A stretch of DNA of 64,000 bases from Minisyncoccota bacterium (GCA_041660505.1 JBAZWG010000001.1:307979-371978), one strand, 5' to 3'. Counted from the first letter of the stretch, positions 309-19,800 are shown. Made by a program: numbers and translations. The notes: generated by a model from the sequence alone, not told the origin.

Positions 309-424
309 CTAGGTAAGAGCTTCCTCTGATTGTGTTTCCTCAATGTTCATTTTGATATTGTACCTCGTATACAAAGCAAACTCAATAAGTGGCGCAATCA
401 TGATTTTTGGGCTATAGTGGAGAG

Positions 425-2209
425 ATGAATATTGAAACCAAAACCTGCCAGAATTGCAAAAAGAGCTTTAATATTGAGCCGGAAGACTTTGAGTTTTACG
501 AAAAAATAAAAGTTCCTCCGCCTACTTTCTGTCCTGACTGCCGACTGAAAAGAAGACTGATCTGGAGAAATGAACGAGCTTTATTTAAAAGAAAGTGTGA
601 CGCCACAGGAAAGGAAATATTCTCCATGTTTCATCCTGACGCCCAAGTCAGAGTCTATGATCGCGATTATTGGTGGTCAGATTCATGGGATGCCACTGAT
701 TATGGCCGAGAATATGACTTTAATAGGCCATTTTTTGAACAATTCAAAGAACTTATCCGTGACGTGCCGTGGTTTAGCCGCTCGGTGAACGATACAGTGA
801 ACAGCGATTATTGTATGAATGCAGGGTGGCTCAAGAATTGCTACCTTCTTTTTTCTGCGGCTTATAACGAGAACTGCAACTATTCAGTAGACTTGGACAA
901 TTCGAGAGAATGTGCGGATTTGTTTTTCTGCAGTTATTGCGAACTTTGTTACACCTCTTGCGGCTGTTCAAATTGCTATAAGGTGTTCTATTCTGTAGAT
1001 TGTCGAAATTGCCAGGAAACATTTTACTCGAAAAATTGCACGAATTGTTCCAATATTTTCGGCTGTGTAAATTTAAACAATAAACAATATTGTATTTTTA
1101 ATCAGCAATATTCTGCCGAAGAATACAAAAATAAGCTGCTTGAATTAAATCCGTTCTCTTATGAAAATCTTGACGACAATGCTGAGAAATTCAAAGAGTT
1201 CGCTTACCGCTTCCCCGTTAGGTCTATGCACGGCAGGCAGAATGTTAATGTATCCGGAGATCATCTAAACAATTCAAAGAACGTCTCGAATTCTTATTAC
1301 TGCGGATCACTCGAAGACTCTCGTTTTTGCCAGTTCCTATTGACACCCCCTGGTTCGAGAGACTGTTACGACTTTACTGTTTTTGGCACAAATTCAGAAT
1401 TGGTATATGAAAACTGCCAATCGGGTATCGATGTTTCAAGACTAAAATTCTGCGCGTATATGTATCCGGCATCTCATGATGCTGAATATTCAATCACGTC
1501 TCCGTCTTCAAGCTATATCTTTGGCTGTGCCGGACTTAAAAGGAAACAATATTGCATCTTAAACAAGCAGTATAGTAAAGAAGAATACGAAGCGCTCGTA
1601 CCGAAGATAATTCAGCAGATGAATAATATGCCGTACATTGACGCGCAAAAGCGTGAATACAGATATGGGGAATTCTTTCCGATGGAACTTTCTCCCTTTG
1701 CCTACAACGAGACATTAATCTATGACTTGTTTCCGCTATCGCCAAACGAAGTGACGAGTAAAGGATATATCTGGCGAGAGCAGACCAAGAAGACTTATTC
1801 TATAACCAAACTGGCAAATGACTTGCCCGACAAAATCACAGATACTGATGATAGTATTGTAAACGAGGTAATTTCTTGTTTACATCAAGGTGATTGTCCT
1901 CATAATTGCGTTTCTGCATTCCGTATAACATCACAAGAACTTGATTTATTGCGAAGATTTAATCTTCCTCTCCCGCGTCTGTGTTTCGCTTGTCGACACA
2001 GTGAAAGACTTTCATACAGAAACCCGCTCAAGCTCTGGCACCGCCAGTGTCAGTGTGGAGGTTTAACCTCCACCAATAGTGTCTACCAAAATACCGTATC
2101 TCATACTCATGGCGTGAACCAATGCCAAAACACCTTTGAAACATCGTACGCTCCCGACCAGCCGGAGATTATCTATTGTGAATCTTGTTATCAGCAGGAA
2201 GTGGCCTAG
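425..2209 (+). CDS. Cysteine-rich protein, paralog 1 of a tandem triplet. It has zinc-ribbon-like N- and C-terminal domains. Family unknown.
   Basis: The track ORF is 407..2209; the start is chosen at MNIETKTCQNCKK by alignment with the paralog starts MNPETKxCQNC. The N-terminus has CxxC...CPxCRxxRR. An internal duplicated module ends FGCxNLNNKQYCIFNQQYSAEEY and again FGCAGLKRKQYCILNKQYSKEEYEAL. The C-terminus ends NTFETSYAPDQPEIIYCESCYQQEVA. Confidence 0.7.
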   Translation: MNIETKTCQNCKKSFNIEPEDFEFYEKIKVPPPTFCPDCRLKRRLIWRNERALFKRKCDATGKEIFSMFHPDAQVRVYDRDYWWSDSWDATDYGREYDFNRPFFEQFKELIRDVPWFSRSVNDTVNSDYCMNAGWLKNCYLLFSAAYNENCNYSVDLDNSRECADLFFCSYCELCYTSCGCSNCYKVFYSVDCRNCQETFYSKNCTNCSNIFGCVNLNNKQYCIFNQQYSAEEYKNKLLELNPFSYENLDDNAEKFKEFAYRFPVRSMHGRQNVNVSGDHLNNSKNVSNSYYCGSLEDSRFCQFLLTPPGSRDCYDFTVFGTNSELVYENCQSGIDVSRLKFCAYMYPASHDAEYSITSPSSSYIFGCAGLKRKQYCILNKQYSKEEYEALVPKIIQQMNNMPYIDAQKREYRYGEFFPMELSPFAYNETLIYDLFPLSPNEVTSKGYIWREQTKKTYSITKLANDLPDKITDTDDSIVNEVISCLHQGDCPHNCVSAFRITSQELDLLRRFNLPLPRLCFACRHSERLSYRNPLKLWHRQCQCGGLTSTNSVYQNTVSHTHGVNQCQNTFETSYAPDQPEIIYCESCYQQEVA

Positions 2210-2261
2210 TTTATAGATAACTTGACTACCTAGCGCAAAGGATATACAATATCGCTATCAC

Positions 2262-2310
2262 TACGAAGGAGACCCTTGTGTGTATCCGTACACATCGGGG
2301 GCTTTTTCTT
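2262..2310 (+). terminator. Candidate rho-independent terminator between convergent genes
   Basis: A GC stem (cccttgtgtgtatccgtacacatcggggg) is followed by ctttttctttt, downstream of the paralog-1 stop and opposite the NYN gene stop. Confidence 0.4.
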
Positions 2311-2311
2311 T

Positions 2312-2803
2312 TCAGACCCTCTTTCGTTGAAACTTATGGTATTGCTCATTCAAAAAAAGCAGGTTTATATTCTTGTTTTTGAGGAGGATAGAGCACTTGC
2401 CTTTATTGGGCGCAACAACTCCGCCGAGCGCTGATTCATTTTGTAAGAATTCCACCAGACAGCCGAAGTCGCCATCGCCGGTAACAAGCACGGCCGAATC
2501 ATACGCTTTAGTATAAAAATCAGAGACGGCCTTAAGCACCAATTCGGCATCGCAGTTCCCTTTCACTAGACCCTCAAATGTTATGGTTTGTTTGAAAATA
2601 AGAACAAAGCCACATATCTGCAAATATTCGTAAAATTTCGCTCGGTCAGGAACGAGTCCTATAAACAGATAGCAATGTGCGGGATTATACTTCTGCCGTA
2701 ACCAACCGCGAAATTTCTTATAATCGATCTCAAATCCCAGCTCTTTTGCTCCGCGATAGAGGTTATTCCCGTCAATATAAATATTTATTCTCTTCACAAC
2801 CAA
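2312..2803 (-). CDS. NYN-domain (LabA/DUF88-like) PIN-fold protein
   Basis: 163 aa. The sequence IYIDGNNLYRGAKELGFEIDYKKF...AVLVTGDGDF is typical of the NYN/LabA nuclease fold. Confidence 0.65.
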   Translation of the reverse strand: MVVKRINIYIDGNNLYRGAKELGFEIDYKKFRGWLRQKYNPAHCYLFIGLVPDRAKFYEYLQICGFVLIFKQTITFEGLVKGNCDAELVLKAVSDFYTKAYDSAVLVTGDGDFGCLVEFLQNESALGGVVAPNKGKCSILLKNKNINLLFLNEQYHKFQRKRV

Positions 2804-2896
2804 ATTCTAACATATTGCGCACAAAGATGTATAAAACAAGAAAACCCGCCGGGTGGACAGATTTTCTTGTCCCCCCTTTGCGGGCTTTAAAATGCG

Positions 2897-3220
2897 CTAT
2901 TCGACACTCACCTTCTCTCCCTCGGCTGTCAGATACGTCCGGGGATAGACTACTACCACCTCCTCCCCTTCGACCGGGTGGATTGCCCAGTCGCCGAGGC
3001 GACCCTCGGACTTGGCCTCGGTATCGGCGGGGAGAATCGTCACCTCTTCGATCTCCCAGAAGAGGGCAAGCAGGCAGAACACCACGCCTGCGACCAGCAG
3101 GCCGCAGGCGCCTGCCGCGATAGCCGGGTAGGCCATCGCGAAGAGGATCGCCCCGTATCCCGCGAGACACGAGATCTCGCAGAAGAGAGCAACTCGAAAA
3201 AAAGTCTTGAAAGAAATCAC
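2897..3220 (-). CDS. Small hypothetical membrane protein inside a GC-rich islet
   Basis: 107-aa ORF with two hydrophobic helices (AGYGAILFAMAYPAIAAGACGLLVAGVVFCLLALFW). Local GC is much higher than the flanks. The overlapping Arg-rich plus-strand ORFs look like GC artefacts. Confidence 0.3.
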   Translation of the reverse strand: MISFKTFFRVALFCEISCLAGYGAILFAMAYPAIAAGACGLLVAGVVFCLLALFWEIEEVTILPADTEAKSEGRLGDWAIHPVEGEEVVVVYPRTYLTAEGEKVSVE

Positions 3221-3351
3221 TGGGATTCCCTCCTGTCAAAAAGCGCTTTGCGTAGTGCTGCGCCGGAGATATTAAAACATATAAAAGAGAGAAAGTCCAG
3301 AGCGAATTATTCTGATGCGTTTGTTTGGATTTTAGGATATAATTACTCAAT

Positions 3352-5106
3352 ATGAACCCGGAAACAAAGGCTTGTCAGAATTGTAAAAAGCACTTCACTA
3401 TAGATTCTAGAGACTTTGAATTTTACGAAAAAATAAGTGTTCCCCAGCCGACTTGGTGCCCTTGGTGCCGGATGATTCGGCGCATGGCCTTCTGGAATGA
3501 GCGTAGCTTCTTTAGGCGCACAGGAGACGATGGCAAACCGGTGCTATCAACTTACCCTCAAGAGTCTCTCTTCAAAATTATAGACGAGGATAAGTGGTGG
3601 TCAGACAGCTTCGATACATTAAGCTATGGCAGGGATTACGATTTTTCTCGACCGTTTTTCGACCAACTTAAAGAATTAGCCTCTACTGTGCCCTTCCCCC
3701 ACCGCGCCGGGATGGAATTGATAGATAGCGAGTATTCCAATAACTCAAACCATCTGAAGAACTGCTACATGTGCTTTAATTCCGCCAAGTGCGAAGACTC
3801 TTTATATTGCGTATTTTCTGGCGCGGTAAAAAATTGCATCGACATACTAAGCGGGTCGGACTGCGAGCTGTGCTATAACCTCGAGACCGGGAGCAGATGT
3901 CATAAAGTCTTCTTTGCCAGCAACACCGACGGCTGTATCAACTCGTGGCTCATGTACAACTGCAACAACTGCAGTGACTGCTTAGGTTGTGTTAATCTGC
4001 ATAAAGCGCAATATCACATCTTCAATAAGCCGTATTCTAAAGAAGAATACTTTAAGAAATTAGGAGGGTTAAATCTTGGCTCGCACCGAGCGCTCGAAGA
4101 ACACAAGAACGTCTGGCATGAGCTAATGCTCAAGTCTCCGAGAAAGTACTATGTCGGGATACAGAATGTGAATTCTATCGGCGATCTTGTCGCCCACTCC
4201 AAAGACGCTAAATATTGTTACGAAGCCTATGGGTTGGAAAGTGTTGCTTATTCCCAAGCACTGGCGCCTACGGTCCGCGATAGTTACGACTTCACCAACT
4301 GGGGCGTTAATGCCGAGAGAGTTTATGAGGCGGTAGATTGCGGCATACACGCATATGATATTAAATTCTCCTTCGGCTGTTCGCCGAACTGTAAAAATAT
4401 ACAATATTCGCTTGGTATTTTCTCCTCATCAGACTGCTTCGGTTGTGTCGCTACTAAAAAGGCACAGTATTGCATCTTGAATAAGCAATATAGTAAAGAA
4501 GAATACGAGGCACTCATACCGAAGATCGTCGAGCACATGAATGCGATGCCATACATTGACGCGCTTGGCCGGAAATATACATACGGCGAATTTTTCCCGC
4601 CCGATATGGCGCCATACGCGGCGAACGAGACTGCTCTGCTCGACTTTACCGATTTAGATGAAGAAAAGTCAGAGGCCTTCGGTCTAATCTGGCGCGAGAC
4701 TAAAACAGCAGAATATAAAACGACTATACAAGCGAAAGATCTGCCGGACAATATCAAAGACGCCGGTGAGAATATTACGAAAGAGATTATCGCCTGTGCC
4801 GGGTGCGAGAGAGCTTACAGAATTATTCCCACAGAGTTCACTTTTTATAAAACATACTCTATTCCTATACCCCGCAAATGCCATAATTGCAGATTTAAAG
4901 ATAGAGTAGCCTTCCGCAATCTGCCCAAGTGGTACCCCGGCAAGTGTAAGTGCGGAGGTCTCGCCTCCGCCAATGGGATGTACCAAAACACCGCAGAACA
5001 CCCACACGGCGCAGAACCCTGCCCCAACACCTTCGAGACGACGTACGCACCCGACCGTCCAGAAATTATTTACTGCGAGAAGTGTTATCAGCAGGAAGTG
5101 GTATAA
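3352..5106 (+). CDS. Cysteine-rich protein, paralog 2 of the tandem triplet
   Basis: 584 aa. It shares MNPETKACQNCKKHFTIDSRDFEFYEKISVPQPTWCPWCRMIRRMAFWNE with the other paralogs, has the internal motif KAQYCILNKQYSKEEYEALIPKIVEHMNAMPYIDA, and ends NTFETTYAPDRPEIIYCEKCYQQEVV. Confidence 0.75.
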   Translation: MNPETKACQNCKKHFTIDSRDFEFYEKISVPQPTWCPWCRMIRRMAFWNERSFFRRTGDDGKPVLSTYPQESLFKIIDEDKWWSDSFDTLSYGRDYDFSRPFFDQLKELASTVPFPHRAGMELIDSEYSNNSNHLKNCYMCFNSAKCEDSLYCVFSGAVKNCIDILSGSDCELCYNLETGSRCHKVFFASNTDGCINSWLMYNCNNCSDCLGCVNLHKAQYHIFNKPYSKEEYFKKLGGLNLGSHRALEEHKNVWHELMLKSPRKYYVGIQNVNSIGDLVAHSKDAKYCYEAYGLESVAYSQALAPTVRDSYDFTNWGVNAERVYEAVDCGIHAYDIKFSFGCSPNCKNIQYSLGIFSSSDCFGCVATKKAQYCILNKQYSKEEYEALIPKIVEHMNAMPYIDALGRKYTYGEFFPPDMAPYAANETALLDFTDLDEEKSEAFGLIWRETKTAEYKTTIQAKDLPDNIKDAGENITKEIIACAGCERAYRIIPTEFTFYKTYSIPIPRKCHNCRFKDRVAFRNLPKWYPGKCKCGGLASANGMYQNTAEHPHGAEPCPNTFETTYAPDRPEIIYCEKCYQQEVV

Positions 5107-5114
5107 TGACTGGC

Positions 5115-5150
5115 AAGGTTCAACCTTGGGCATTCAAAAGGTTGAACCTT
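5115..5150. repeat. Paired palindromic element AAGGTTCAACCTT-N-AAGGTTGAACCTT (family 1)
   Basis: aaggttcaaccttgggcattcaaaaggttgaacctt lies between paralog 2 and paralog 3. It is the same unit found at nine other sites in the window. Confidence 0.8.
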
Positions 5151-5160
5151 AAGACAGACC

Positions 5161-6900
5161 ATGAACCCAGAAACTAAAAGTTGCCAAAACTGCCAAAACC
5201 CGTTCGTCATCGAGCCGGAGGATTTCGGGTTTTACCAAAAGATAAAAGTTCCCCCGCCGACTTGGTGTCCGGAGTGTCGAAATGTACGACGAATGGCGTG
5301 GAGGGAGTATATGACCCTGTATCGCGGCGTTTGTGCGATGTGCCAGAAACAAATCGTAACCATTCATGCCCCGGGCGGGCCATTCACCATCTATTGCCGA
5401 GAATGCTTCAGATCAGACAAATGGAGCCCTCTTGACTATGGTAGAGATTACGACTTCGACTCTCCGTTTTTTACACAATATCGTCGCTTGATGGAAGCAG
5501 TCCCCCGACCGGCGTTAACCGGCTCGAATCTTGTGAACAGCGATTACACTCACGCCTGCGAGAGCATTAAAAACTGCTACTACACTTTCTTTAGTTTCCA
5601 AACCCAAGATTCGGAAAATTGCTATGCGCTATTTCTGTCTCAAAATTGCTTCGACTGCTATGTGACTGACAATTCTAACCAGGCTTATGAATCATTGCAT
5701 TCAAACAGATTGTACAGAGTGAGTTTCGGCTACTTCGCTGATGAATGCCTAGAATCGTCTTTCTTGTATGACTGTGTCGGCTGTTCAGACTGCTTCGGTT
5801 GTATAAATTTGAGGAAACAAAAATACTGCATTTTTAACGAGCAATTTTCCAAGGAAGATTACAAAGAAAGGATAAAATATTGGGATATCGGCAGTTATGC
5901 CAAACTCAAAGAAGCAAAGAAAAAATTCAGGGAACTCTATCTTTCTACGCCCCACCGTTATGCCAACATCCATCATAGCCAAGATGTTACCGGCGATATC
6001 ATTCGAGACGCTAAAAACTGCCACGCGTGTTTTTCTGCACTTGATGGTGTGGAAAATTGCAAATACCTGTATTTGGGCGGCTTAAACTTGAAAGACAGCA
6101 TGGATGTGAGCGGTGTTGGGTTGTCATCTGCGCTCCTATATGAAGTTTTTGGGATTACCGGAAATGCGTTTCGATGCTTTTTTTCTGTAGGCGGCGGTAA
6201 TTCCCAGAATACCTGGTATAGCGATTGGGCTAATAATTCATCGGACATCTTCGGCTGTATCTCTGTTAAGAATGTTAAAAATTGTATTTTAAATAAAAAG
6301 TATTCAAAAGATGAGTATGAGGCAATGATCACGAAGATCAAGAAACAAATGGACGAAGTCCCGTATGTCGACAAAAAGGGCAGAATATATAAGTTCGGCG
6401 AGTTCTTTCCGACTGAACTATCCGCTTATGCGTACAATGAATGTTTCGGGTTCCCGTTCTATCCGAAGACAAAAGAAGCGGTATTGGCCGAAAACTGGCG
6501 ATGGCAAGAATCAGCTGTCAGATCATATAATATCACCAAGGAGCCGCTAGATTTACCGGACAATATTCGAGATACTCCAGATTCTATTTGCAATGAAATT
6601 GTCGGCTGTATCGATTCCGATTGTGGCCATCAGTGCACCACAGCCTTCAGGATAAGCAAAAATGAACTCAATTTTTACAGGAGCATGAATGTCGCCTTGC
6701 CGAGGAAATGCCCGACATGCCGCACAGATGAACGCTTCGCTTGGCGGAACCGATATACTCTCTGGGAAAGACAATGTATGTGCGCGGTTGAGAGTCATGG
6801 TCATGGCAAACAATGCATAAACCGCTTCGAAACTACCTTCTCACCTGAGAAACCGGAGATTATTTACTGCGATCAATGTTATAAAGCAGAATTTATCTAA
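5161..6900 (+). CDS. Cysteine-rich protein, paralog 3 of the tandem triplet
   Basis: 579 aa. It starts MNPETKSCQNCQNPFVIEPEDFGFYQKIKVPPPTWCPECRNVRRMAWRE, carries a second CxxC...CxxC ribbon (CAMCQK...YCRECF), and ends INRFETTFSPEKPEIIYCDQCYKAEFI. Confidence 0.75.
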   Translation: MNPETKSCQNCQNPFVIEPEDFGFYQKIKVPPPTWCPECRNVRRMAWREYMTLYRGVCAMCQKQIVTIHAPGGPFTIYCRECFRSDKWSPLDYGRDYDFDSPFFTQYRRLMEAVPRPALTGSNLVNSDYTHACESIKNCYYTFFSFQTQDSENCYALFLSQNCFDCYVTDNSNQAYESLHSNRLYRVSFGYFADECLESSFLYDCVGCSDCFGCINLRKQKYCIFNEQFSKEDYKERIKYWDIGSYAKLKEAKKKFRELYLSTPHRYANIHHSQDVTGDIIRDAKNCHACFSALDGVENCKYLYLGGLNLKDSMDVSGVGLSSALLYEVFGITGNAFRCFFSVGGGNSQNTWYSDWANNSSDIFGCISVKNVKNCILNKKYSKDEYEAMITKIKKQMDEVPYVDKKGRIYKFGEFFPTELSAYAYNECFGFPFYPKTKEAVLAENWRWQESAVRSYNITKEPLDLPDNIRDTPDSICNEIVGCIDSDCGHQCTTAFRISKNELNFYRSMNVALPRKCPTCRTDERFAWRNRYTLWERQCMCAVESHGHGKQCINRFETTFSPEKPEIIYCDQCYKAEFI

Positions 6901-15531: not shown

Positions 15532-16722
15532 TTACGCGTTGATTTTCGTTACAACTCCTGCACCCACCGTCTTGCCACCTTCACGGATAGCGAAGCGTTG
15601 CTTCTCTTCCAAAGCTACCGGGGCCACGAGCTTGACTGTGATGTTGACCGTATCACCAGGCATAACCATCTCTGTGCCGGCCGGCAATGTCACGTCGCCC
15701 GTCACGTCCGTCGTGCGGACGTAGAACTGCGGCTTGTAACCATTGAAAAACGGCGTGTGACGGCCTCCTTCTTCTTTCTTCAAAACGTAAATTTCTGCGG
15801 TGAAATCGGTGTGAGGAGTGACTGAACCAGTCTTACATAGGACCTGACCGCGGGTAACATCTTCTTTCTTGGTACCGCGGAGGAGAATACCGGCATTGTC
15901 GCCAGCGATACCCTCGTCAAGCTGTTTGTTGAACATTTCGATACCGGTAACGGTCGTCTTGGAAGTCGGGTGAATGCCGACAATTTCTACTTCTTCACCT
16001 ACCTTAATCTTCCCGCGTTCTACACGGCCGGTGACCACAGTACCGCGGCCTTCAATAGAGAACACGTCTTCGATAGGCATGAGGAATGGCTTGGCGACAT
16101 CGCGAACAGGCTCAGGAATATAAGTATCCAAGGCGTCTGTGAGCTCAAGAACTTTCTTGACCCACTCATCATTTACATCCTTGCCTTCCAGCGCCTTAAG
16201 GCCGGAGCCGCGGATAATCGGACAATCCTTATCGAAGCCCTGCTTGGCCAATAGGTCGCGTACCTCCTCTTCAACGAGGTCGATAAGCTCTTTGTCGTCA
16301 ACCATGTCGCATTTGTTCAAGAAGACAAGTACCTTTGGCACACCAATCTGCTTGGCCAAAAGAATGTGCTCGCGAGTCTGTGGCATCACGCCATCGGTTG
16401 CGGCAACAACGAGAATAGCCCCATCCATCTGGGCGGCACCGGTGATCATGTTCTTGATATAGTCGGCGTGTCCCGGAGCGTCGATGTGCGCGTAGTGGCG
16501 TTTATCTGTGGCGTATTCGTTGTGAGAAAGGGCGATAGTAATACCGCGCGCCTTTTCTTCCGGCGCAGAGTCAATCTGGTCTACCGACTTCATGCGCACA
16601 GTCTTACCCGCCAAGTTGAGCGAGTGGAGGATGGCCGCGGTCAAAGTGGTCTTGCCGTGGTCAACGTGACCGATGGTGCCGACATTTACGTGCGGCTTGG
16701 AACGATCAAATGCTTCTGCCAT
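15532..16722 (-). CDS. tuf: Elongation factor Tu
   Basis: 396 aa. It has [18 protein letters not shown] and NKCD, the canonical GTPase motifs of EF-Tu. Confidence 0.98.
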
Positions 16723-16807
16723 ATTTTTTAAATAAGATTATTAATACTAATTTTTTATAACGTCAGGAATCGCGCTCTACGAGGACGCAATACCTATTTA
16801 AAACAAA

Positions 16808-16845
16808 GCCACGCACATAATCATGCGTGGCTTGTATAGTAGCAG
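16808..16845 (-). terminator. Rho-independent terminator after the 1284-aa surface protein gene
   Basis: On the minus strand, gccacgca-tgattatgt-gcgtggc is followed by tttgtttt. Confidence 0.6.
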
Positions 16846-16867
16846 ATTCTAGGGCTATCCGTCAATA

Positions 16868-19800
16868 CTACTTGAGCGAGGCTTTCAAGGCTTGCAGAGC
16901 CTTAAGAATACTGGCAAGTTGTAGATTCATACTCTTCGTATTTAACGATGCTGCCGCCGCCGTAACCGTAAAGTTAGCGGTAGCCCTTCCACCATCAGGG
17001 TTTGTGACAACAACTTCCTTGCTTCCGGCTGCGGTAATGTTGCTACCGAGTACTTGAGCAACCATCCAAGTGCTAGATCGTGCCCTTCCACTGCCATCCG
17101 ACGATAGAACTTGATTTACCGGCACTCCACCAAAGGTGACGGTGGAATTGAGGGCAAAGTTGGTTCCATTAATAGTTAGCCAGAAATATGAGGGGTTTGA
17201 GCCGGCAACGAGTGTTGCCGGAGAGAGCGAGGTGATGGTGGGAGTAGTGGCGGCAGGCGTGACAACCGTGAATACTGATGGTAGTCTCACATAGCCACCT
17301 GCGGACTGATAGACTATTAAACCATAACTGCCGGGTAGGAAATTGGTTGGTATATCCCAAGTCACACTATTGCCAGTAATATTTTGGGCAATATAGATAT
17401 TGCTTGGCCCCTCTGTCGCTAACGTAATAGGGCCTGTAGAACCGGCGGGTACTCTTGTAAAACCAACTGTTACCCTAGAGCCTGGATTTATTATGCTACC
17501 TGATGCTGGTGTGACTGTGATACCGCTTACCGAGGTGGTGGGGATGGGGGTAGCGGAGACCACTGTGTAATCCACTGTCACTGTATTCCCTATCTGTGCG
17601 CCTGACCTCTGCAATTTCCACTGTCGACTGATTGCTCCGAGATTACTCGTACCTTCAGTGAGGAATGTCACGGTGTAGCTTCCATCGCTATTTCGCACCA
17701 CCGTACTGCAGTTTGAATTACTCTGCAAAGAGATAGAACTGCACACCTGACCTCCGTTAAACTCCGGTCCTCTGTATAGATTAACATCGTTACCCCACAC
17801 CGCCGTACCTGTGTTTTTCACAGTGATAGTCGGTCGGAATGTACTGTTTTGAACCACATTTTTGTTCGCCGGAACTCCACCTACTGTGAGAGTCGCTTGA
17901 TAGGTAGGTTCAGCGACAACTGGGGCTCCATACTGCACATCGGCCTGGTAGTACCAACCTGACACCTGCGTGTCACCGTTATATGCGACTACGACATAGT
18001 GATATTTTGTTCCAAGTACCAGAGTCCTGCCGTTACTACCTGTATCTACACAAGATGGCGCATTCGGGCTGAAGCCGATGGCACAGTCAGTGCTAACGTC
18101 AGACCAGAAATCCTTACGGTCAGAGAGACTCCCGTCTGTCGGGCTAACGACATAGCGCAAGAAAGCGTATCTGTTGTAATTTGGGTGCTTAGGCCAAGTG
18201 AAGGTTATCTTGCCGGCGGTTGTGTCTGCGACTGCTGTGGCGGTGGTCGGTACGGTCTGGGTAGCATCGATAATAATATTCCTTATAGAGGAACATGTGG
18301 TCAAATTCTTTTTACATACGCGTATCTGTAGATTTCCAACAGGAGTATCGCCGCCAGTACCCAGATTCAATGCACCAAGACCTAATTGGATATCGGCCAC
18401 AGAAGTGTTCCAATTTGTAGCACTTGCAGCTTTATATTGAACCGTGGCTAATTCAGTTGAAGAAATTTCGAGAAATGACCACGTTAGTGACACTGATTGA
18501 CCCATAGTGACATGAGCACCCTCAATAGGATTATTTATGGTAATAGACCCCATGATTGTTGGTGTCGTTCCATACACCACATCGGCTTGATATGAGTATT
18601 CACTTGTAGGAACTTGGCTTATGTAGCCGTTCCATGCATATACTTTGTATCGATATTTTGTTCCAAGCACTAGACCTGATTTGTCGACACAAGACGGTGA
18701 GTTACGATCGAAAGAGTTTGAACTGGTTGTGCTTGAACATTCACCAGTGTCTGACCATAAATATTTTTCCACGGCAGATTCCGTACCAGCTGAATTTACC
18801 GTCCTGCGAGAAACAACATATCTATTGTATGTCGGGTGCTTCGGCCAAGTGAATGTAACCTTACCGGCGGTTGTGTCTGCGACCGCGGAAGCCGTTAGGG
18901 TTGTTGGGTTGTTGATTGTAATACCGTCTGTTTTTGCCGTTGCGATTATTAAGCCTTCGGGATGGACCGTGGCATCAGCGAGGGCGATACTAAGCAGATA
19001 TTCACCTGCTGGGATTGCATTAGTATTCGGTAAAGTCCAGCTCATTGTCCCGGCTGATGCGATTGGATGAGCACTCAAACCGACGTCTTGCTGTGGTAGC
19101 CCGGTGTCGCTACCTACTGGATACAGCGATACCACCACAAATAGATTATGATTTGTCGGCAAATTTGTAGTCGTCCAATTTACTGCGTAAGTAGCACCTT
19201 TCTGTAAACGGTTGCCACCGCTCGGTCCAGTAATTGTGATTGTCGGGGAAACCGGCGCTGTCGCAGTCAGGCGGGTCCCTGTACCGTATACAGTCCCTGC
19301 GGAACGCAATTGAATCAAACCTGCATCTGCGCTGTCGATCTTTCCGTCATCGTTTACATCACACGACCTACTGGCCGGACATGAGAATCCGGGTTTATTT
19401 ATGGAAAGGTTGTACATAAACGACACATCCGTGCTGGTGAATGCGCCGTCGCCGTTCACATCAAATGTTGAATCGGGAACATTAATGACTCCATTGTCCA
19501 ATCTGGCTCCCTGACCAAACTTAGCTTGCGAAAGCCTCGATGCCATGAGTGCCGTATCGCTGTCGTCCACTTTTCCATCTCCATTCAAATCACACTTCTC
19601 TATCGTACAGACAGATGTTTTGCCGAGAGTGAAGTTGATTATATTCTGCTGATCTGAAGAATCTACTCTGCCGTTTGCATTTATATCGAGAGCACTGTCG
19701 AGAAGTTTGATGTCTCCGGTGTTTGTCGGGACAAAACGTGCACCGGTACCAAATATCATGTTGGTGCCCATAGTTCTGTAAACCATAAGCTGTGAGTCAA

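Follow-up and report, generated by a model that had tools for sequence, protein, structure and literature searches.

The genomes of Paceibacteria, about 0.7-1 Mb in size, are believed to discard all dispensable genes. They nevertheless retain between 3 and over 11 old copies of a gene for a nameless 585-aa protein, paralogs that can occupy as much as about 2% of the genome. What is this protein for? The question is raised here by a 64,000-nucleotide stretch (called the window below and always meant at its full length) of the Minisyncoccota genome GCA_041660505.1 (JBAZWG010000001.1, 307979-371978; the organism is labelled Candidatus Paceibacterota bacterium), near whose start lie three genes of this kind, referred to as paralogs 1, 2 and 3. 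Our tentative answer, which we rate at a probability of roughly 35%, is that their products would act as zinc-scaffolded adaptors, or as substrate-recognition or specificity subunits, of orphan motor ATPases resembling TrwB and HerA.

The three genes are transcribed from the plus strand and all three open reading frames (ORFs) are intact. Paralog 1 occupies 425-2209 (594 aa), paralog 2 3352-5106 (584 aa) and paralog 3 5161-6900 (579 aa); they score 881, 930 and 721 bits, respectively, against a hidden Markov model (HMM) of the family. The paralog 1 ORF can be extended to TTG 407, giving 600 aa, but ATG 425 is the likely start, since it aligns with the MNPETK beginning of paralogs 2 and 3 and is preceded by GGAGAG 3 bases upstream. 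Over the full length paralog 1 is 47% identical to paralog 2 and 40% identical to paralog 3, with about 190 columns invariant among the three, in agreement with the initial annotation, which described the genes as homologous, old and strongly diverged. Cysteine makes up 5.7-6.4% of residues. At a 45% identity cut, paralog 1 falls into a subfamily of 29 members.

No characterised family covers these proteins, as had been suspected from the sequence: outside the terminal fingers described below, sequence and fold searches fail. Scans of the three paralogs against Pfam, NCBIfam, PADLOC and PHROGs gave nothing above cut-off, and no sequence relative was found in the PDB, either with a single protein or with a 49-sequence profile. 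The weak matches, both to uncharacterised families, are T4_Y13H (E=0.15) and phrog_15341, which matches aa 136-216 of paralog 2, within its module M1 (E=1.6e-6; residue numbering is that of paralog 2 throughout). Homologs number at least 6,667 in a 90%-clustered database; at 50% identity they form 3,464 clusters with E<=1e-3 and 1,282 with E<=1e-30, and at least 574 loci were located in GTDB species representatives. The named sources are all metagenome-assembled genomes of Patescibacteria (Sung-, Lipton-, Harrison-, Jorgensen-, Staskawicz-, Nomura-, Giovannoni- and Wolfe-bacteria, Paceibacterota), and the database names are all "hypothetical protein" save one "Zn ribbon nucleic-acid-binding protein" (JGI) and one "zinc-ribbon domain containing protein". 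Literature searches returned no description of the family and nothing relevant on PF13451, zf-trcl or Parcubacteria cysteine-rich paralogs. The family, of about 585 aa, is restricted to Patescibacteria and found mainly in Paceibacteria. Its building blocks (treble-clef fingers, beta-solenoid) are known in kind; the family itself, its architecture, its arrays and its link to ATPases are absent from the libraries and literature searched.

The adaptor reading starts from the gene neighbourhoods. These were counted in 82 non-redundant loci of about 20 kb each, picked as best matches to paralog 2; an ATPase was taken as present when it lay within 10 kb and as adjacent when it was directly next to a family member. 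The recurrent neighbour, a soluble P-loop ATPase, shows TrwB_AAD_bind, DUF87/HerA, TraG-D_C and T4SS-DNA_transf signatures. At least one is present in 34 of the 82 loci (41%; 53 ORFs in all), compared with about 4% by chance, a rate that we estimated ourselves from about two VirD4-like genes per ~1-Mb genome and a 20-kb stretch. In 20 loci the ATPase is adjacent, and the two members of each of the 32-34 adjacent ATPase-family pairs share a strand, the gap between them having a median of 57 bp. The commonly repeated order is SecD/F, a Sigma70_r4 plus HARE-HTH gene, a transmembrane protein of about 460 aa, an ATPase of about 490 aa, family copies, CutA, a longer ATPase of 610-830 aa and EF-P; a second recurrent setting of the arrays is between DnaK and DnaJ. 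The closest ortholog of paralog 2 among the fetched loci (L001 in our set, 55% identity) sits between two ATPases. Two ORFs join the transmembrane protein to the ATPase (L016 10654-13056, 801 aa; L027 3178-5547, 790 aa; N-terminal transmembrane part of about 380 aa), which suggests a joint action of both at the membrane. The separate protein of about 460 aa carries a weak precomputed "DUF8128" label.

The other line of evidence is a ribbon domain that the family seems to have in common with these ATPases. Module A (aa 1-52; 3352-3507, +) is an N-terminal zf_Tbcl treble-clef finger, CxxC-x24-CxxC, with ligands C8, C11, C36 and C39, and is followed by module B (aa 53-88; 3508-3615, +), a hairpin at the position of a zf_Tbcl_2-like ribbon which in paralog 2 has no cysteine ligands. 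Near the other end stand module A' (aa 476-528; 4777-4935, +), a second zf_Tbcl finger with ligands C482, C485, C510 and C513, and tail B' (aa 529-584; 4936-5103, +), a C-terminal ribbon with ligands C532, C557, C575 and C578. The two end modules are homologous (aa 1-56 against aa 475-530, E=1.3e-16 in hhalign, the profile-profile comparison of sub-alignments used for all internal duplications). Among 194 homologs drawn from 84 loci, the ligands are conserved at 96-99% in A, 89-98% in A' and 98-99% in B'. The zinc-ribbon-type modules that the initial annotation had placed at both ends are thereby confirmed, and at the ends a low-complexity artefact as the source of the cysteine pattern is excluded. 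Details of that description need amending: the RR-x-A-x-RNE consensus of the N-terminal module is not retained in every paralog, and the C-terminal tail, while conserved, is not invariant, reading NRFETTFSPEKPEIIYCDQCY in paralog 3.

A and A' are probably Pfam zf_Tbcl treble-clef fingers. PF13451 ("probable treble clef domain") matches 18 of 49 family members at E<=0.1 (best E=1.1e-6), and within the window it matches only paralog 3 (E=0.044, 14.2 bits, below the cut-off of 24). The likeness lies in CxxC ... F-x-F/I ... (D/E)(F/Q)xFY ... P-x-x-C-x-x-CR. The predicted fold of finger A matches phage "zinc-ribbon domain" proteins of BFVD with a probability of 0.96-1.00 and a root-mean-square deviation (rmsd) of 0.5-0.6 A over 40 columns; zinc ribbons were the only matches of model 1 (see below) in that database. 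PF13451 is itself an uncharacterised domain whose window copies fall below the Pfam cut-off, and it accounts for only about 17% of the family protein, where it occurs twice and flanks some 430 residues matching nothing.

In paralog 3 module B retains its ligands (5332-5406, +), spaced C58-x2-C61-x17-C79-x2-C82. This is exactly the CxxC-x17-CxxC spacing of zf_Tbcl_2 (PF23477) and TIGR04272, although the scores are below the cut-offs (E=0.0078, 16.3 bits against 27, and E=0.036, 13.8 bits against 36). The initial annotation rightly saw this ribbon but took it for an extra of paralog 3. Cysteine occupies the four B-site positions in about 40-63% of the 194 members, and the ribbon as such is retained in about 40%. 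The module is therefore ancestral rather than an added insertion, and paralogs 1 and 2 have lost their ligands; paralog 1 retains only one of the four. Long-form ATPases of the neighbourhoods carry a bona fide zf_Tbcl_2 with the same spacing (E=8.8e-15; L007 12097-14160, L061 3878-6376 and 18 others), and tail B' aligns with it over 24 columns (hhalign E=8.6e-5, probability 60%). Module B aligns in register, weakly, with both tail B' (E=0.005) and the ATPase ribbon (E=0.02). Given the alignment of B' with the ATPase ribbon, each end of the protein can be read as a zf_Tbcl finger followed by a zf_Tbcl_2-like unit. The tail departs from the CxxC-x17-CxxC pattern in its first knuckle, in place of which it has C532 and the distant C557; as a third zf_Tbcl it was rejected (E=0.13). 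Altogether the family has three universally conserved four-cysteine sites, presumably for zinc, and one or two further optional ones; a loop of B' with C534, H550 and H552 is present in about 60% of members. Small Methanosarcina proteins with CxxC-x17-CxxC do bind zinc according to inductively coupled plasma mass spectrometry (PMC12704099). In the long-form ATPases, zf_Tbcl_2 is followed by 150-350 low-complexity residues with a conserved end, (V/I)(I/N)xPG(E/D)(T/A)IKF.

Several observations weigh against an adaptor role. No ATPase of this type lies within the 64-kb window, and 48 of the 82 loci have none within 10 kb. Two orthologs of paralog 3 are singletons beside housekeeping genes. Since best matches to paralog 2 made up the set of loci, the association may fit only some subfamilies, though it is spread over several. 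The likeness between B' and the ATPase ribbon is short and of limited probability. Adjacency in streamlined, syntenic genomes can reflect ancestry and not function. The interaction, the nucleic-acid binding and the metal content are predictions.

These points bring in the most serious competitor of the adaptor reading, a stand-alone nucleic-acid-binding zinc-finger protein, i.e., an RNA or DNA chaperone or regulator that works without the ATPases and is found next to them through inherited synteny. Both zf_Tbcl fingers are basic (isoelectric point 8.9 for A and 9.6 for A'), which makes nucleic-acid binding a plausible candidate function of the protein. The housekeeping contexts of some copies (ribosomal proteins, SerRS, XseA, EF-P), the copies without ATPase neighbours in the window and around paralog 3 orthologs, and the JGI label of one homolog all fit a protein that acts by itself. 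The whole protein is mildly acidic (isoelectric point 5.6-6.6), however, segment Y strongly so, and some 80% of the length is not finger. Also against it are the ATPases in 34 of the 82 loci, compared with an estimated 4% or so by chance, their operon-like gaps and the ribbon domain that they have in common with the family. We regard the stand-alone binder as possible but doubtful.

Among known systems, the neighbourhoods resemble those of type IV coupling proteins (VirD4/TrwB/TraD) with their accessory or substrate proteins, and of HerA/FtsK-type ATPases with their partners, in the same-strand, short-gap adjacency to an ATPase seen in 20 of the 82 loci. They differ from these in that the ATPases are soluble and not beside virB4 or relaxase genes, that the window copy is without an ATPase and that the family resembles no relaxase, TraM, NurA or other known partner. 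Altogether 5,713 VirD4-like homologs were reported in 2,918 Patescibacteria genomes; the survey placed only 148 of them near virB4 and left open what the homologs do (PMC12102498).

The family genes form arrays, and their age bears both on the adaptor reading and on another explanation. Counting with the family HMM on the ORFs of 84 fetched loci, with the window added, gave one copy in 34 sources, two in 15, three in 15, four in 11 and 5 to 11 in 10. The extremes are L013 with 11 copies and L049 with 9 copies that fill all of its 17 kb. Within an array all copies share a strand, and the gaps between them have a median of 12 bp; paralogs 2 and 3 are 54 bp apart. Identity within arrays has a median of 40% (5-95% range 30-49%), and for 95% of arrayed members the nearest relative lies in another genome and not in their own array. 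Orthologs of paralog 3 at 60-68% identity occur in many Paceibacteria, and the top match of paralog 2 is 62% identical. Judging by these relationships, the three copies represent different ancient, maintained subfamilies and not a recent expansion. The local expansion or old triplication assumed in the initial annotation gives way to tandem arrays of 2-11 copies across Paceibacteria; copy numbers in related loci, which the annotation proposed to check for 1, 2 or 3, range from 1 to 11.

It is conceivable that the paralogs are translocated effectors, passed by the VirD4-like ATPases to the essential type IV secretion system that Patescibacteria possess and from there into host cells, with the arrays reflecting host range. 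The genes do adjoin ATPases of the coupling-protein type, the extreme C-terminus is strongly conserved and, as sets of diverged paralogs, the arrays are reminiscent of the VirB2 pilin arrays described in Patescibacteria (PMC12102498). We consider this unlikely. The adjacent ATPases are soluble, such homologs are usually far from virB4 (PMC12102498), and no virB genes were seen in the array loci. Instead of evolving fast, the paralogs are old and conserved from genome to genome, a protein with three to five zinc sites makes a poor unfolded substrate and no family member turned up when IMG/VR viral contigs were scanned.

Between the finger-bearing ends, the protein consists of two repeat modules and two conserved segments. 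Segment X (aa 89-125; 3616-3726, +) is a helix region with YGRDYDFSRPFFEQ and YGRDYDFSRPFFEQxxEL. Module M1 (aa 126-240; 3727-4071, +) has about seven 12-residue Cys/Ser-rich repeats and a cap, CxxCxxCFGCVNLxxKQYxIFNxPYSKEEY, followed by a helix. A helical linker (aa 241-262) leads to module M2 (aa 263-395; 4138-4536, +), which ends in FGCxxxKKxQYCILNKQYSKEEYEA. Segment Y (aa 396-475; 4537-4776, +) is acidic (isoelectric point 4.3) and conserved, with MPYxDxxGRxYxYGEFFP, AYNET and DLPDxIxD; homology between X and Y was rejected (hhalign E=0.21). M1 and M2 are homologous (aa 106-240 against aa 255-393, hhalign E=6.6e-29) and each closes with FGCxxLxxKxYCI(F/L)NKxYSKEEY, which bears out the duplicated cysteine-periodic modules that had been described in the middle of the protein. 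The M1 repeats of paralog 1 stack as LKNCYLLFSAAY, NENCNYSVDLDN, SRECADLFFCSY, CELCYTSCGCSN, CYKVFYSVDCRN, CQETFYSKNCTN and CSNIFGCVNLNN, and the autocorrelation of hydrophobicity reaches 0.39 for a lag of 12 and 0.32 for one of 24, compared with about 0 at lags 6 and 18.

As a zinc-ligand pattern, the periodicity of the middle modules did not hold up. Most of the periodic cysteines of the repeat region are conserved at 10-77% in the 194 homologs, with serine as the main substitute; since Cys and Ser swap across homologs, the repeat cysteines are probably packing residues and not metal ligands. Better conserved are C207, C210 and C213 of the M1 end motif (86-95%) and C365 and C374 of the M2 end motif (90-95%). 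Family-wide pairwise identity is lowest in the repeat parts (30-32%, compared with 50-57% in finger A and the end motifs).

Two AlphaFold2 models were built: model 1 of paralog 2 from 49 sequences (mean predicted local distance difference test, pLDDT, 81.8; predicted template modelling score 0.85) and model 2 of paralog 3 from 103 sequences (90.0 and 0.90). Segment X is modelled at pLDDT 94-96 in both, and segment Y at 88-98. The repeat modules are poor in model 1 (pLDDT about 60); in model 2, M1 reaches 92-96 with short strands every ~6 residues, and the second half of M2 only about 63. M1 and M2 are predicted to be beta-solenoids. The protein has no transmembrane segment or signal-like stretch (maximum KD19 1.2) and, judging by sequence, should be cytoplasmic. 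Solenoids with comparable repeats include the antifreeze protein of Tenebrio, which has a 12-residue Cys-rich coil, and pentapeptide-repeat proteins are beta-solenoids too. Disulfide-stapled coils are unlikely in the present family, as its members are expected in the cytoplasm.

Could the solenoid be the body of an enzyme? A beta-helix enzyme, such as a hexapeptide-repeat acyltransferase or a relative of gamma-carbonic anhydrase, with paralogs differing in substrate, is suggested by the Foldseek comparison of model 2 with the PDB, in which the top 50 matches are almost all beta-helix proteins (LpxD, GlmU, gamma-carbonic anhydrase, LpxA, PglD). As in the left-handed beta-helix of such enzymes, strands come every ~6 residues and small residues (Cys, Ser, Asn, Asp) stand at fixed repeat positions of the M modules; polar residues D85, Q105, N225, D313, N377, E413 and D466 are invariant outside the fingers. 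The matches are weak, however (E of 1e-3 or worse, template modelling score about 0.1, rmsd 17-21 A), and the poorer model 1 found nothing in the PDB. The M modules repeat every 12 residues and not every 6, 18 or 20, neither the three paralogs (E<=1) nor 49 members (E<=0.1) match Hexapep, and the PDB holds no sequence relative. An enzyme of this kind appears quite unlikely.

Returning to the adaptor reading, we propose that the two basic treble-clef fingers would hold nucleic acid or the ATPase itself, while the variable faces of the solenoid would give each paralog its own specificity or target. Specificity of this kind would explain the retention of many old paralogs. More tentatively than for the adaptor role itself, we speculate that the family, the soluble VirD4/TrwB-like ATPases and the membrane-anchored partner together form a hitherto unrecognised, Paceibacteria-wide motor system for nucleic acids or proteins. 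Such a system would account for the orphan coupling-protein homologs that run to thousands in Patescibacteria, and the paralogs would serve in it as exchangeable specificity subunits, with a new 12-residue beta-solenoid fold clamped by zinc. If the ATPase link is functional, these orphan homologs (PMC12102498) would gain a concrete partner in the family. Irrespective of the link, the protein defines a new domain architecture and probably a new type of beta-solenoid, with about 80% of its length matching no described family or solved structure.

The immediate neighbours in the window are of a different kind. Paralogs 1 and 2 are separated by two genes on the opposite strand: an NYN gene (2312-2803, -; Pfam E=3.7e-16) and a small ORF of 107 aa (2897-3220, -), which has a GTG start, a hydrophobic N-terminal half and no Pfam hit. 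The small ORF overlaps a segment of 62% GC (2851-3220), compared with about 42% around it. The pair looks like an insertion that separated paralog 1 from paralog 2. On the adaptor reading, the three window genes would have come away from an array of the kind associated with ATPases and been divided later by this insertion. Upstream of paralog 1, a fragment of a P-loop gene of the Zeta_toxin type (3-308, -; Pfam E=3.4e-17) runs past the window start. The P-loop kinase-like gene and the NYN gene named in the initial annotation are both real, and their co-occurrence with the family was looked for: they are found in none of the other loci, where the recurrent neighbours are the TrwB/HerA-like ATPases. 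The 107-aa ORF and a 188-aa membrane-like ORF 3' of paralog 3, which is followed by a ribosomal protein operon, are missing from the other loci as well. We conclude from this absence that none of the four belongs to the system.

The same neighbours could be taken as a sign of defence, immunity or a toxin-antitoxin association, as the NYN and Zeta_toxin genes flank paralog 1 and the array layout is typical of immunity genes. Small genes are also inserted in the arrays of L008, L017, L026, L054, L070, L083 and others; by eye some look PemK/MazF- or Fic/Doc-like, and one is PaaX/Cas2-like by Pfam. Since they resemble the NYN and zeta genes of the window, the arrays seem to tolerate or attract small insertions. 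The ATPase, moreover, matches the PADLOC models mad8 and HerA. The three paralogs themselves match no PADLOC defence component at E<=1, however, they are old, NYN and zeta genes are absent from all the other loci and the arrays stand in conserved core synteny (SecDF to EF-P, DnaK to DnaJ) rather than in variable islands. A defence role is very unlikely in our judgement. Weakest is the idea of a metal or redox buffer or Fe-S scaffold, which could point to the cysteine content, the CxxCxxC clusters and the recurrence of CutA-like genes in arrays but is highly improbable, as the periodic cysteines mostly swap with serine and, unlike in metallothionein-like or Fe-S cluster proteins, are not conserved throughout, conservation being limited to the finger ligands and a few cysteines at the M-module ends.

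Some minor observations concern the same stretch and its relatives. The Zeta_toxin fragment is cut off by an in-frame TAG (309-311) from an upstream ATG at about 350-352, and it may be a pseudogene or use a different start. GC content in 300-bp windows is about 0.33-0.44 in paralog 1, below the 0.40-0.52 of paralogs 2 and 3. Scanning the window for Rfam families and tRNAs gave no match. A tblastn search against phages gave one weak match to M1 (E=0.05), QXO06500.1 of Campylobacter phage CJLB-14 (L085 2881-3306). This 142-aa protein consists almost wholly of CxxCxx repeats, and we judged the similarity to be compositional; cysteine-periodic modules like M1 may occur in phages. Finally, the 840-kb genome of L086, which has a singleton ortholog of paralog 3, contains, close to that ortholog, two further genes of about 600 aa without a Pfam hit (15585-17363 and 1-552), which may be additional diverged members of the family.

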